A DNA stretch of 64,000 nt. Source: Hydrolagus affinis (lineage: Eukaryota). The translations under genes were made by a program, and so were the position numbers. Below, piece after piece: positions 48,386-56,452 of this stretch. Location of the stretch: NCBI GenBank assembly GCA_012026655.1, contig JAAILG010000048.1, positions 1-64,000 of the forward strand, read 5' to 3'. The stretch's first letter is position 1. Each line of letters starts with the position of its first letter. The notes under the pieces are model-generated. The model ran no database searches, was not told where the DNA came from, and was given only the letters and a program-made list of their open reading frames with translations.

Positions 48386-51300
48386 TGAGTTCCATCTTGA
48401 AAGCTAATATGGATTCTGCTATTGACTTGGCAGGACATACCATATCCTGACAAACATCTGTGAATAAATCCACCCTAAAATCTTCCTTTGCTCATTTTGG
48501 AAATGATCTCAAATTGATGCCCTCACGTCGCTGAACTCACTAGTAGAAATAATTTCTCCCTTTTGTATTCCCATCAAAATCCCTCCATTTCAGCTCTTAC
48601 AATTGGTCTTTCAAACAGAATTATTGTATTATCCATTGACATATTTGTAAAATTCATTGAGATCAGCTATGAGAACAATCACAGTTTATGCAGGCTCACA
48701 AAAAATATATAGTTTAACCATGGAAACATGTGTCAGATTGTAGTTTGACAATTTCAACCTGTGTTGGGTCTGAGTTCGACAACCTTGGCATGTACTGGTT
48801 ATTAGTGCACAGCAACATTTTTAGAACTTTCAACTGGGGCAATCAACCAAGTTGCCTTTTAAAATATTTGTCTAGGTCAAGGTTTTTTAGGAATGATTCC
48901 CATGTTATACATCACAAACAAATGTATTGTCAAATAGAAGGCACAACTTTAATGGAGGATGGATAGTACATTATTAATGTTTCATGTACAATTACTTGAA
49001 GCATCATCAAAGTAACCACGTCAGATTAAATGTATTTTCTTGTATATGGTCAAATCCCAACAGAAACCACTTCAATTTGCCTTATCTCATTGAAAACAAT
49101 AATATCCCAATAGACCTCAACACAAAGGGCTGTTAGGAAATGCAATTTATATTTCATAAGTGCAGTAAAATTCTGCATGCATTATAAACAAGTTACATTG
49201 CAGTATTTATGTTCTGTTATCATCAAGATATGTATAAGTAATGTGGAGAACTTTGGGAATATGAACTGTGCATCTTACATCTATTGACATTGATGTTGCA
49301 GTTATACAGTTCAAATGAAAATCACAAAGTTGTTCCCTTCTTTTACTACATGAAAAATCCTCTTTTAGTTTTGCTGAGCTTGTGAACAAAAATAATTAAT
49401 TATTATAATACTTTTTGTGTCATTAAACCATATACTGTATTATAATAGGATTGGTAAAATATATTCTACATTTATATATTCAATCAGTCGATTAATGTTT
49501 TGGAAAATAATATTATTAAATGTGTACCTTTAAGTTTGTGAAGATGTTACTATGCAATACAAGATGATACTCCATGTAGAGGAAGCTATATTAATGCAAT
49601 TGCTTTTGTTGTTGACTGTTTATAAGAAAATGAGAATATGGGAGGTCATCAGGTATAAGTACAAATCAAGTTGCTCTGAGCCCTCAGTTTTTGTTGCATT
49701 TCCGTCTGAAAAGAAATGAATCACAATATGATTCACTAATGGTAATATTGATCATAATGGGGAATATAAGCCATCTGATATTGCGCTATTTTGTTAAATA
49801 ATTGTGCTGCCTGGCTGAAAACTGTCATATCAAGCCTAAATATGAAGTTGGAAAATGTTTATACATTGATATCTTGTGAAAGCCAGCATCAACTCTTTTT
49901 TTGTATGTTCCATTGATAGCTAAGTTTCTCCACAAGGAGATCTGCAGTAAGTTATAATAGTGAACCCTGCAGTAGTTTAGGGATGGTTATTTCACATTTG
50001 GAGTTGTCAGATCTAAACAGCATTGAAGAATTATCCTGTTTGCACAACAATTACGGATCAATCATTGAAAAGCAATTAAATTACAAAAGGTGGTACTTGA
50101 TGAAGTGTTTATGTGGTGAAACTTAAATAGGATCAGTCTCAGATATTCACATTGTATGTGGAAATTAGAAAGATCTTAAAGTCTCACCAAAATGAACATT
50201 CTGCCCACTTGCTGGAACTCCATATCAGAATTCCTCCAACTCACTATTTCCCTCCCAAATTTTAAAGCCCAACCTCAAGACTTACCTCTTTGACTCTGCG
50301 TTTGCTACTCTTTCCCCTCTTTCCCACCTTCTTCAGCAATCTTCCCTCTTGCCTCCCCCTCCTTCTCTACCCCCCCATATAAAGGGCTTTAAGATGTCAT
50401 TTCAATGTACAAGGTGCTATGTTAACATTAAATTGTATTGTACTGTAATCAATTGATATGTTAAGAAAATGTTGAAATAGTTTCAGCTCACATTCTATAG
50501 TTAAATAACTTCAGGAAGAAAGGACAGGCGAGTTATTGGATTACTGGAATGAAAGCAACATTATTATTGAATTGGGAAGCATCCAGAAAATATAAAATTG
50601 AATGCGTGGTGGTATACCTCAGAATGGCAGATACGGCAAACATTAACTGGGGAGAAAATATCTCCTTGAAATGACGGGGCACCTTTGCCATTTAATATAC
50701 TGGCAATCAGCCTATGAGTGACACGGTCTACTTGTGGGTGAGAACTGAGCCAGAAGAAATGAGTGTGCAAAATGCTTGTATGGTATAATTAGATATTTGT
50801 AAAGCCCCGATCAAATCTGAAAGTGTTATAACTATACACCTGTTATGTGGTCGGAAAGGTCATTCTGTTGAATACAAACTGTCAGCTTAGAGTTGAAATG
50901 CTGAAAAATTTCACCTGAAATGAGGTAATTGATTTTCACGTGGGATAGTTTCTATCCAGGGTTTCAGTTACACCAAATGATTTTTGTAGGAAGTTGATTG
51001 AGGAGTTAACCTTTTCTATCAGCCAGTCCCGTTAATGCTTGGTATTGTTTTCTTGGAATTGCTAGATCTTGTTTTTTTTGTGTGAAATTATCACTTTGTA
51101 TTACTTTTGTCTGTTATTTACTGATCATTTTTTAAGTTGCCAGATTTGTTATTGAATTGTATCCGTTTCATTCATAAAAATACTACCGACCTGGGAAACA
51201 GCAGGTTTGAAATGCAAATGAAGGCACCTGTTCAAATAGAAATGCGTGTTATTACAGCCTAAAGCACTTTGCCCAAGCCTAAATATAGCATTGGTGTCAG

Positions 51301-51869
51301 TGAATGAAAGTTAAGTCAAGGAAACTAAAGGTTACATTGGAATCATAGGAAAAATAATTCTCAATTCTGGGGAGAATATTTTTTCGAATTGCTGCTTCAA
51401 TGCCTGTAAGAGAGAAAGGAAATTGACCATGCAGCAAAATTATTATGGATGCAGTTGAAAAGTATTCTGCTCTGTGCTGGGCTGTGGGTTATTATGTATG
51501 ACTGTGTCTGTAAGTATTTGAACTCATCTGAAGGGCACTTGAAAGGAAATGCACATTGCAAAATAGAAAAAAAAATCAGTTAGTGGGAATGATTTCTAAT
51601 TTGTGTGCATGTAGTAGTACATCCAGAGCCTGCCTTCTCTGGTAATAGAGAAGCAGATCAGAGCAGAATCTGATACCAAGATATTTTCAATCTTACTATC
51701 TATTATTTCACAGGTGATGTAAACCCAAGACTAGTCAAACATCCATTCTGGAATACAGATCTATCACATAAGCGAGAAATAAAAGAGAAAAGAAAATGCA
51801 GCACATGCCATACATCACACAGCCAAGGTCATCTACATATTAATGAATAACATTAGTTTTCTCTTCCTT

Positions 51870-52290
51870 TCTTGCGATGAGTACACCTATCTATAACCAA
51901 CCCTAGCATGACATTGTAAGGGTGGAGTTGGTAAACTGAGAACAGATTATTATTTTCTATTTTTCCTTGAAATTTCAGATCATTTTGATTTAATCCATAA
52001 GCATTAACCAGAGTGTATAGATCTGTACCCAGTGACCCGTTAACAATGATATATCTTCCCTGCAAGCTACCCACTTTCTCACTGATGCAAATTGCTATTT
52101 TATATGCATTAGTGAGTCAATGCCATGTTTCACAGAAAACCAGAAGCAGGAAATATTTCTCTGATGCAGTCTTTCTTCAGACAAATGTGTTCTTTATTTT
52201 AATCAGATAAGTACTACATGTCATAAGCACTTATTAGTTTTGTTTAACTGAACTAATGGTGTCCATTCTTAACGGATTTATTAATTATGA
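51870..52290 (-). mobile_element. Decayed L1-clade ORF2 endonuclease remnant
   Basis: Minus-strand GRYIIVNGSLGTDLYTLVNAYGLNQNDLKF resembles the L1 APE motif GRYIIV.G......L.N.Y.PN.DD..F; downstream YNVMLGLVIDR resembles FN..LD...DR; upstream frameshifted KEHICLKKDCIREIF resembles EH..LK..W.G..F. Confidence 0.65.
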
Positions 52291-52549
52291 AATCTGGACA
52301 TCCATGAAACTCCCTTCTCTTTTCACATAATGTCATAGGATCTACAACAGACATCTGTTATTTAACATTGCATCCAAACAATCTGGCTAAAAGTAAAAGT
52401 CTGGTTCATTGTGGAACATGCTCAGAGTCCACATTGGGATTTATTTTGCTCAAATCTAGGCTGATACTGCAGTTGCAGTCAATGCTGAAGGAGCACTGCA
52501 ATGTCAGAGGTGCTGTACTTCAGATAAGACCATCAAATCTGAGGTTCTA

Positions 52550-52968
52550 AACAAAAGGCAAAATACTACAGATGCTGAAAATCTGAAATATAAAAACAGA
52601 CGTCACTGGGAACACTGAGGAGGTCAGGTAGCATCTATGGAGAGAAGTATGTTTGTGGGATACTGCTGTACGCAAATGGCTGCCGAATTTCACCCACAAA
52701 TATACATAGTATATTCTATGAAGCATTTTGAGACGTCTAGAAGATGTGAAAAACACTATATCAAATGCAAGGATTATTATTATTAAAGTGAATTAACGTT
52801 TCAGGTTATAAACCCTGATTCAGGTTGACCTTTCGTCAGACCTGTATATTTTATGGGCAAACCCAGCAGCAATTCTGACGAAGGTCATGAACCTGACATG
52901 TTAACTCACTTTCCTCTCTCTATAGATGCTGCCTGACCTGCTACGTTTTCCCAGTGACGTTTGTGTTT
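52550..52968. mobile_element. Fold-back element, probably inverted Penelope-like (PLE) terminal repeats with hammerhead ribozyme motifs
   Basis: Exact 14-bp TSD AATCTGAGGTTCTA (52536-52549, 52969-52982); left arm (52592-52647 plus 52785-52840) complementary to right arm (52874-52968); CTGACGA...GA(A/C)A cores on both strands. Confidence 0.75.
52648..52784 (+). mobile_element. Short SINE 3' fragment nested in the left arm of the fold-back element
   Basis: TGTTTGTGGGATACTGCTGT...CAAATGCAAGG(ATT)n. Confidence 0.9.
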
Positions 52969-53969
52969 AATCTGAGGTTCTATCTGCTCATTTAGGTGGA
53001 CACTGAAGATTCCATGGCACTATTCAAAAAAAGAAAGGAGTTTCTCCTGGTGTTCTGTGAATAACATATTATTCTTGGCGATTTGTGGGATATTTTGTGA
53101 GTCTTTGTCTCAGTTCCTTCTCCTTCTTTTGTCTCATATGCTATGGCTTCTTTATCCAATTTTCTCTTGTGATTTTATGGTCTCCACCAAACAAGCAAAT
53201 TATGCTTTTCGTCTTGTTCTTGGAGATTTTAAGGCAGCAATGATGGAAAATGTGATGTGTTGTTATAATGATAATGCTTGCATTTGATATTGTGCCATAT
53301 CATGTCTTTGTGACATCTCAAAGTGCTTCACCGGAACATACTGTGAATTGAATTGACTGTCTATTTTGTGAGAAAAATGTGTGCAACCAATGGGGCACAA
53401 CAGTGTCTCAAAAAAAGACAGCATTAAGAAACCATCTAAACTATATTTCAGAGTATAGCTTTGAAAAACCAGAGGCACAAATGCAGACAGGCAGCTTTTT
53501 TGCAATTCACAAATACCTTTCTCAACTTTTCATATTCTCAATCTTTAATCAAACTCCTCGGTGGAAATGGACTAAGGATGTTAAAGAATCCTCATTCAAC
53601 CTAAGGTACGCTGGAAAGAATTCTGTCATAATGCTAATTATCCAAACAAACACCTGATTACTGACCCCACAAAAGAACTTCTGGGCTTCAACCAACCCCG
53701 AAAACAAAAGTCCACGTTGAATCTTTCAGAACATCGCACTTTTTTCAGCCTGGAAGGTTCTTACCAGACAACAGTTGTCACAGTTGTAGGGGTATCCACC
53801 TCCTTCATTCAAGTCATTGGCCCATAACGTAAAACTTTATTTTCTCGATTATTTTCAGCATATTTTAGCCTGAAGTTACCTATGTTGATAGGTGAGCAAT
53901 GAAATTATTTATTTTCCTATTTTCTTCCTTGCTCGTTTCTTCAAGAGACCGGCCCTTTCTATGGCACAT

Positions 53970-54212
53970 TTTACAGCTGTTTGGGACTCCTGAGTATTTC
54001 AGCCAAGCAGCCATGCTTTGTGTGAGCCCAGACAATGAGCAGGCTTGTTTGACTGATATAAGCCTGGATATTATTGCTCAGCACAACCCTGTTCTTACTT
54101 GACATCCACACACATGCATTTAGCAACAGGGTCACAGGATAGTTATCAGATGCAAGATCTCTGGCTGATTGTTTTCCTTCATAACCTCTGCCCGGCTAAT
54201 ATCAGCTAACTC
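53970..54212 (-). mobile_element. AmnSINE2-like SINE
   Basis: TGTGTGAGCCCAGACAATGAG, ACATCCACACACATGC, GGGGTCACAGGATAG, CTGGCTGATT, ATCAGCTAACTC. Confidence 0.65.
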
Positions 54213-54224
54213 TATGTATTTCTA

Positions 54225-54330
54225 AATAAAACACAAAAGATGCTGGAAATCTGAAACAAAACCAGAAGTTGCTGGGGAAACTCAGCTGCCTGACCTGCTG
54301 AGTTTCCCCAGCAACTTCTGTTTTTGTTTC
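54225..54330. mobile_element. Short copy of the same fold-back family; 34-bp stem
   Basis: 54253-54286 pairs with 54297-54330 (1 mismatch, 10-nt loop); TSD TATGTATTTCTA / TATGTATCTCTA; shares GATGCTG.AAATCTGAAA and GCTGCCTGACCTGCT with 52550-52968. Confidence 0.8.
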
Positions 54331-54342
54331 TATGTATCTCTA

Positions 54343-54672
54343 TGTGGAGTCCTATAGCTCAGTGGTTAGAGCACTCGCCATACAAGCGTGAGACTTGTGT
54401 TTCGAATCCAGGCAGGTCAGGGCAAAACCTTGGGCAAGTTTACTTACTCCTCACGCCTAATAATAATCCATCCAAAAAAACCTATAAGAAATTGGTCATT
54501 TCAATCCATGACTGTTTGTGGGACACTGCTGTGTGCAATTGGTTGCCACGTTTTGCCCATGAAAAACAGTCAATTCACTTTACAGTATATTCTGTAAAGC
54601 GCTTTGAGATGTCTAGAAGATGTGAAAAGCATTATATCAAATGCAAGGATTATTATTATTATTATATTATTA
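54343..54672 (+). mobile_element. Short tRNA-Deu-L2 SINE, full length
   Basis: A box TAGCTCAGTGG (54355-54365), B box TTCGAATCC (54401-54409), (ATT)n tail. Confidence 0.95.
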
Positions 54673-55664
54673 TCTTCTAGTCTGCATGGCTTAGTTATTT
54701 TAATTGAGATTATGCTAACACCTTTTGAATTTACATTAGGAAATACATTTCTGGCATTTGTGCACAGTAAGGTCCCACAAACAGCCGTAAAGTGATTGAC
54801 CAATATACTGTATCTGTTCTAGGAACAGTAAGCTGTTTAAGATTTAAAAGTGAATCATTTATATTTATACTATGATAACAGGTACTCCAGAAATGTTACA
54901 TGCTCTTCAGAATACTACCTCAACAAAATTTGACAGCAGTCAGGTTAGTATTTTATTATAAGAAGAAATCTATGCATAATCAAGAGACTATTTCTTTCTT
55001 CCATTCTTTTAAATAATTTGCCTTCCTGTAGATATTCCATGCCTGACTTAACCTATGTCTAAGGAAGAAGGCCAAGTGAAACAAAATGCCCAGTAGGATA
55101 AGCAGCGAAAAGAAAGTTCTATTTCCTGCTTCGATTGGGTTGCATGATCATGAATGAACCTGACAAGTCTAGTTGTAAAGGTGGACTTTCACAATACATG
55201 TGAGTCTTTCCTATACAAAGGTCACACATTTGGATTCCTTGCTAGTGGGGCTTAATAGAGTTACAGTATCATAAAAAGGGTTTTAAGATTGTTTTGTGAT
55301 TAGTCATTTACATAAAACAACAGTGAAACAACATTTACCTCTTTCACCTCCACTTTTGATCTTCTTCATGTTTTTCTTCATCTTCTTCATATTATTATAA
55401 TCTTACCTTATCGTATTATTACCTCCACTCCCCCACACCCCCTTCTCTCCCATCACACCCACACCCACACCCACACACATACACAAATCTGGCTTGGATA
55501 CTTAGTCAACAGTGTAAAGTGCTTTGACACATCCCTCCAATATGAAAAGCACTATGAATATGTAAATTGTATTAATAATATGTATTGAATATACTTTATC
55601 AAAAAGGTTCTAATAAGAATTGTGTTACTCTTTCAGATACACAAAGCAATTGGATTATTTGTTG

Positions 55665-56452
55665 TTCCAACAAAAAGACAGAAGCCATTGTCTCTGGCTC
55701 CTGTCGACGTCTTCTGGCGTAAGGTTACATCCTCCTTAACCTACCTAACCTACCCTTAAAACTCTCCGAACCTGTGCGCAACTTAGGTGTCAGATTCAAT
55801 CTTCGGTTATCCTTCCTCCCCCATTTATGGTCTCTAACCAGCAATGCTTTCTTCCATCTTCACCACATTGCCCGACTCCGTTAATACCTCACCCCTAAAG
55901 CTACCGAAACTCTTGTCCGTACCTTTGTCACCTCTCGGCTGGACTACTCCAATGCCCTCCTCGCCAGCCTCCCGTCCTCCACTATTCACAAAATTCAGCT
56001 CATCTAAAACACTGCCGCCCACATTCTCACCCGCATCAAACTTCATACCTCAATTACAGTGAGGTTTAGCATTGCTAAACCTCACTGGCTCCCTATCACA
56101 GAGCTGATTGATTTGAAGATCCTCACTCTTGTGCTTAAATCCCTCCATCCTCGGCATCCCCCTATCTCCCTCACCTCATTCCTCACAGCAGTACCAGCTG
56201 TTTCCGTTCTACTGGGTCCAGCTTCCCGCTTGTCCCCCAAATTCTCCACTTTCAGCCAAGTCCTGAAACTTTGGAGCTCCCACCCTCAACCCCTCCATCA
56301 CACCCTCCTTTCCCATCTACAGGTTGTGCCTGAAGATCTTTCTCTTCGACCATGCTTACGGTCACCTTCCCCCTCCACCTGGCTTGGCCTCAGGCTCTGC
56401 TATTGTTAAGCACTCTCAGACACCAGTTGGCGTGTATAAATGCAAGTTGTTG
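55665..56452 (+). mobile_element. L2 3' fragment, second subfamily, decayed
   Basis: AAGACAGAAGCCATT (KTEAI), CCTGTGCGCAACTTAGGTGTC (PVRNLGV), CGGCTGGACTACTCCAATG (RLDYSN), HWLPITELIDLKIL; tail AAATGCAAGTTGTTG. Confidence 0.88.

Follow-up and report, generated by a model that had tools for sequence, protein, structure and literature searches.

A 419-bp insertion at positions 52550-52968 of the Hydrolagus affinis window (the whole 64,000-nucleotide stretch of DNA analyzed here) is, we conclude with considerable confidence, a head-to-head pair of 5'-truncated ends of a Penelope-like retrotransposon that encodes reverse transcriptase (RT) and a GIY-YIG endonuclease, likely made in one abortive insertion and carrying on each end a damaged hammerhead ribozyme that is predicted to be inactive. 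The observations that carry this interpretation are its membership of the family, the link of that family to open reading frames (ORFs), a 14-bp flanking duplication, a tail on one arm only, two SINE pieces, and defects in both hammerhead cores. The locus itself is ordinary; what is of some value is a statistic of the 5' ends of the family, to which we return below.

Anatomy of the insertion

The insertion contains both hammerhead cores and is bracketed by a perfect 14-bp direct repeat. Its parts are as follows.

52536-52549, plus strand: target-site duplication, left copy, 14 bp, identical to 52969-52982; 14 is the modal duplication length of the family
52550-52647, minus strand: inverted (left) arm, the 3' part of a Penelope pseudo-LTR, 82-85% complementary to the right arm; aligns with the longer 3' end of the family
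about 52550-52585, minus strand: optional tail of ~35 nt within the left arm, part of the longer 3' end of the family
52650-52785, plus strand: 5'-truncated SINE piece that ends in an (ATT)n tail and has lost 14 nt internally, splitting the left arm (from the SINE alignment)
52785-52843, minus strand: minimal hammerhead relic, core letters intact, with a bulged A; predicted cut 52795/52794
52844-52870, minus strand: spacer, a short SINE fragment that is antisense on the plus strand; its reverse complement aligns to SINE copies
52871-52906, plus strand: minimal hammerhead relic with A14C; predicted cut 52902/52903
52907-52968, plus strand: direct (right) arm, the 3' part of a pseudo-LTR without the tail, stopping at the shorter 3' end of the family
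52969-52982, plus strand: target-site duplication, right copy, 14 bp, identical to 52536-52549

The spacer forms a 72% inverted repeat with 52675-52706, and meets both cores through microhomologies of 4-5 nt at the 5' strands of helix I. The segment 52780-52915 folds back at -51.2 and -52.5 kcal/mol on the two strands (z -7.6 and -7.2), a stability reached by none of 200 shuffles. The initial annotation had proposed a fold-back insertion at this place, and with z values near -7 the inverted insertion is real; its extent is larger than was then supposed, and the 14-bp repeat and both SINE pieces had been missed.

The SINE piece at 52650-52785 shares 74-78% identity over ~150 nt with five other copies in the window and, as judged from a single genome, likely entered the left arm as the later of the two SINE events. 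Near 54348-54661 lies a longer copy with an (ATT)n tail and a head that resembles a tRNA (Rfam tRNA, E 0.012, below the gathering score); ARAGORN reports no tRNA genes in the window. The same SINE contributes about 20 other pieces to the window. The two element types also meet elsewhere, where several short Penelope copies (L031, L046, L281, L032 and L033) lie inside the SINE 3' region at two recurring AT-rich spots, an association that may reflect target preference or the abundance of the SINE. The same Penelope end forms another, shorter fold-back at 54226-54330, with 34-nt arms that are 97% complementary; it is truncated before the hammerhead and matches an Rfam miRNA-like hairpin below the gathering score.

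An endonuclease-positive Penelope-like family

The right arm finds 2403 first-look candidates in the 1.11-Gb genome, and exact pattern matching genome-wide gives 525 places for a 33-nt core representing one subfamily and 2996 for a 28-nt tail, with no matches to the reversed controls. The subfamily that resembles the window copy, with an A-U pair in helix II, accounts for 11 exact matches. Walking upstream from long copies leads into coding sequence. The linked RT and GIY-YIG ORFs for which the initial annotation had recommended a search are indeed present: among 30 RT-picked loci (the best 30 of 151 matches to an RT fragment), GIY-YIG lies on the same strand in 26, and RT, GIY-YIG and hammerhead follow in that order on one strand in 20. 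At locus L115 an RT core, a CX4CXXC linker and GIY-YIG share a single 407-aa frame that ends 279 nt before the hammerhead, and the same linker is found in the frames of L100 and L110. The L115 frame has 223 homologs, many with PF00078, PF01541 and PF26215, and the best named ones, at up to 59%, are from sharks and rays, which makes a cartilaginous fish the likely host. Several RefSeq gene models of sharks and rays that bear host-gene names, such as P0006 and P0013, also match the element ORF (54% and 53%), which is likely annotation capture of element sequence.

Domain searches with the decayed frames of this genome are weaker, with Pfam reporting GIY-YIG at E 0.017 and 0.0017 and RVT_1 at E 0.0018, all under the curated cut-offs. 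The L115 frame itself matches no Pfam family, a PDB sequence search with the RT frame returns no matches, and when homologs of the short GIY-YIG frame were sought in longer proteins, none of 45 candidates scored. The family is nonetheless an abundant endonuclease-positive Penelope-like retrotransposon, and its linker motif suggests an element of Neptune or Nematis type, to which a CX2-5CXXC linker is described as common (PMC8557442). The assembly is fragmented, at 245,464 contigs, and 16 widened loci contain neither a full-length element with a 5' pseudo-LTR nor two direct pseudo-LTRs around an ORF. The ORF-linked copies belong to subfamilies with a G-C pair in helix II, and the A-U subfamily of the window is tied to them by sequence continuity and not through an ORF-bearing member of its own. 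At one locus, L288 (G000:C2651), a copy running from RT to hammerhead is preceded by two truncated ones in inverted orientation, the nested organization that is classic for Penelope.

Origin of the fold-back

Inverted arms are common in this family: 41 of 106 short copies have one within 60 nt. Duplications of 9-15 nt, with a mode of 14, flank 15 of the 65 short copies that lack an inverted arm. The 3' ends of family copies fall into two clusters, at +94 to +106 and +129 to +136 counted from C3 of the core and about 33 nt apart, which match the published tail and two internal RT starts (as described in PMC11167929 and PMC8557442). In the insertion mechanism that we favor, the endonuclease of the element would cut the target with a 14-nt stagger, and RT would prime from both target ends at internal starts ~95 and ~130 nt downstream of the core, presumably copying uncut RNA through the hammerhead up to an RNA 5' end on helix I. 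The two short cDNAs would then be joined through a captured SINE fragment, and the second SINE piece would, likely, enter the left arm later.

A stepwise origin, with a solo Penelope end and the SINEs arriving or being rearranged on separate occasions and the flanking repeat bounding just a part of the unit, would accommodate the two SINE pieces and the 16-nt scar in the minus core, as well as arms that differ by 15-18% in sequence while the 14-bp repeats are identical. We consider it improbable: the duplication directly adjoins both arm ends and has the modal length of the family, both cores begin at the usual 5' boundary of the family, and there is a published precedent for foreign DNA caught between solo pseudo-LTRs and flanked by a duplication (PMC3846280).

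The initial annotation had taken the locus for a non-autonomous derivative of a Penelope-like element, and a perfect duplication around the whole unit is what a mobile family, retrozyme- or MITE-like and spreading as a two-hammerhead unit, would leave; animal retrozymes are described as non-autonomous Penelope derivatives, including in one chondrichthyan genome (bioRxiv 10.64898/2026.07.22.740005). Retrozymes are, however, tandem direct repeats, whereas the cores in the window lie on opposite strands. Moreover, the spacer end of the query is matched by the window alone among 40 scored candidates of the 2403, fold-backs elsewhere in the genome have other junctions, and the tail on one arm fits assembly at the time of insertion. 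With arms that are 5'-truncated ends of an ORF-bearing family and a spacer-core junction confined to the window in that sample, a mobile unit is not supported, and we regard spread as a unit as very unlikely. The joined insertion of two truncated ends is thus preferred, and the unit in the window is a one-off stump with SINE pieces, among thousands of dead stumps.

The family hammerhead and its cleavage register

Four sets of copies were used for the core, in which 26 of 29, 20 of 30, 73 of 90 and 27 of 29 loci reach the core start; two of the sets were not selected by core. In all four, the majority letters are those of the conserved CUGANGA, GAAA and NUH boxes at every core position, and complementarity in helix I is present, so that the complete motif of a minimal type I Penelope hammerhead, as first proposed from the window, is recovered in the family. 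Its architecture comprises a 4-bp helix I, a bulged A after A9, a 5-bp helix II, a C-G palindrome, and U at positions 16.1 and 17. Among the 73 tail-selected copies, 56 have G-C at 10.1-11.1; of the 27 window-like copies, 14 have A-U there, and all 27 have U-G or U-A at 2.1-1.1. These are compensatory changes between subfamilies, although few subfamilies imply few independent events. At the palindromic 15.2-16.2 the commonest state is C-G, and most other states are products of CpG decay. Most individual copies are decayed, with 3 of 26, 3 of 20, 5 of 73 and 6 of 27 intact by the full descriptor.

In the main subfamilies GUU is followed by G (23 of 26, 19 of 20 and 64 of 73 copies). Because this position holds G or A, which pairs with U2.1, the triplet is GUU; cleavage is predicted to follow it, and R-A-C-U would then pair with A-G-U-U. 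The initial annotation had placed the cut after UUA, a register that in the main subfamilies reads UUG, which is no NUH triplet, and that assignment is abandoned.

The two cores in the window

The letters of both cores are where the initial annotation put them: on the plus strand CTGACGA (52875-52881), AGGT (52882-52885), ACCT (52891-52894) and GACA-TG-TTA (52895-52903), and on the minus strand CTGACGA (52839-52833) and GAAACGTTA (52802-52794). Letters alone carry little weight, since a loose core pattern has 16 matches over both strands of the window. A descriptor that requires helix II as well as a palindromic helix III, and allows GA[AC]A, selects exactly the two sites, against a mean of 0.08 per dinucleotide shuffle (100 shuffles), and requiring GAAA leaves the minus site only, against 0.04 per shuffle. 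When a 4-bp helix I is also demanded there are no matches in the window, and neither core passes. Rfam reports no hammerhead family among 15 matches in 50000-56000, nor among 4 matches at six loci with intact cores (both at E up to 10), as is expected for motifs lacking helix III.

Both cores are damaged. The plus core has A14C in its GAAA box (52897), a change of C15.2 to T and one A missing before helix II, and forms three of four helix I pairs; position 14 is A in 26 of 26, 20 of 20, 69 of 73 and 27 of 27 copies of the family sets. In the minus core, helix II occupies 29 nt against 13, with 16 extra nucleotides that include a micro-inversion, and helix I again has three of four pairs, with a G-A mismatch. 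Folded as hammerheads the window cores have energies of +2.7 and +4.1 kcal/mol, compared with -6.9 for an intact copy. The cores are 35 nt apart, each strand of the fold-back pairs core with anti-core, and as they lie on opposite strands no single RNA carries both. Both are accordingly predicted to be inactive, in keeping with the earlier suggestion of a fossil copy. The helix I degeneracy noted at the same time is present as mismatches, to which the junction letters shared with the SINE spacer likely contribute as much as decay does. That the minus core, with CUGACGA, GAAA and C-G-U-U unchanged and three of four helix I pairs possible, is a still active or host-adopted ribozyme can be dismissed as extremely improbable, given a helix II shortened to 4 bp that closes a 21-nt loop, hairpins that compete at -18.5 against +4.1 kcal/mol, sequestration by fold-back pairing, and the lack of in vitro cleavage described for lone minimal hammerheads (PMC4209133).

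5' ends of the family and a candidate RNA start

In a sample of 92 copies chosen by the tail pattern alone (the first 92 of its 2996 places), 39 start at -5 to -1 from C3 and 12 extend beyond -10; none starts at the cut site (+29) and one does at +30, and with that single copy near it the hammerhead cut site was rejected as the 5' boundary. Among core-selected copies, 66 of 91 have upstream homology of at most 10 nt. Starts at the front edge of the core, with almost none at the cut site, suggest templates that had not been cut and whose 5' end was fixed on helix I.

The base next to this boundary is also skewed. G precedes 16 of the 24 short copies that end exactly at A(-4), where 26% is expected, whereas long copies have C or T at that position in 46 of 46. 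A genome-wide match from -4 through the core yields 709 copies, of which 157 have a base other than C at -5, and this base is G in 79 of the 157 (p 1e-10); one base further out, G is found in 16 of the first 100 listed of 156 (hand count). Among the first 100 listed, the non-C base at -6 is T in 60, for which a C-to-T change, a subfamily variant or a junction bias may account. Five of 23 plain G copies have recognizable target duplications; the extra G lies outside the duplication in three and inside in two, and 3 of 6 plain T controls also have extra bases. Several features weigh against a cap origin of the G: of 40 sampled G copies, 17 have an inverted arm and 25 have T before the G; an element-derived piece of at least 5 nt can explain 20, as it can 8 of 10 A controls.

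A tentative reading, which we hold to be possible and somewhat doubtful, is that a capped Pol II transcript starts at A(-4) within an initiator-like CCAGTT, so that the RNA opens with the 37 nt of the hammerhead, capped RNAs that are uncut serve as templates, and cleavage after GUU would take off the cap, acting as a decapping switch and not as the cutter of a long tandem precursor. Such a start would account for the thousands of precise copies of 100-135 bp, the additional G being derived from the cap. Extra G residues at full-length LINE-1 5' junctions have been read as cap copying (PMC11702581), and the Penelope element of D. virilis is described as starting transcription inside its pseudo-LTR (PMC2377424). 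In an active parent, the hammerhead would be predicted to act solely in dimeric form or when assisted by protein, and to cut after GUU some 33 nt from the putative RNA start. In the literature searched (listings and selected passages) we found no statement of an RNA start or cap at a Penelope hammerhead.

The same D. virilis element has an intron reported to end at helix I (PMC4209133), and a 3' splice site was considered as the 5' boundary. About 60 nt before the core, long copies L062-L090 have a pyrimidine-rich tract ending in CAG two bases before CUGA, resembling a 3' splice site. Among genomic copies no spliced form is seen. In 66 short copies the letters at -6 to -12 show no conservation and hence no sign of a shared upstream exon; any such exon would have to be very short.

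Comparison with known elements and significance

Much of this arrangement has precedent. The minimal hammerheads of metazoan Penelope-like elements (PMC4209133) share with this family the CUGANGA and GAAA boxes, a bulge between 9 and 10.1, a 4-bp helix I, the palindromic 15.2-16.2, the lack of loop 3, and a prevalence of solitary truncated copies. Opposite-strand pairs are described there in Schistosoma, at ~100-700 bp in contrast to 35 nt here, and helix II has 7-8 bp in Schistosoma against 5 bp in this family, which also differs in having U as H17 and one subfamily with A-U at 10.1-11.1. Two of the three supplements of that paper contain no shark, skate or chimaera terms. Opposite-strand pairs, solitary copies and the absence of monomer cleavage by minimal hammerheads were thus already reported in 2014 (Cervera and de la Pena, PMC4209133).

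The Neptune and Nematis types (PMC8557442) are alike in having RT followed by a C-terminal GIY-YIG, a CX2-5CXXC linker, a hammerhead in the pseudo-LTR, heavy 5' truncation, adjacent inverted truncated copies, and a tail of 30-40 bp on one end; in contrast, the window locus is without ORF sequence, and no full-length or tandem copy of the family was recovered. Poseidon PAc of Anolis carolinensis (PMC11167929) likewise has two internal RT starts that define a tail, unprocessed RNA as its main template, and no RNA reads starting at the hammerhead cut. It belongs to another clade, however, its ORF starts at stem II, and the account given of it places no RNA 5' end on stem I. Animal non-LTR retrozymes (bioRxiv 10.64898/2026.07.22.740005) also carry a type I hammerhead in non-coding repeats derived from pseudo-LTRs, but as tandem direct repeats with hammerheads on the same strand, whereas the window holds inverted cores in a single-copy unit.

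The arrangement and the motif are therefore already known, and the lead offered here is the 5'-end pattern of the family, which suggests uncut templates and an RNA that would begin, capped, on helix I. What the hammerhead does in endonuclease-positive Penelope elements is described as unclear (PMC8557442). Starts at the front edge of the core, and almost none at the cut site, argue against cut RNA as the template for insertion, and the pattern gives a single base at which a capped start may be tested by cap mapping.
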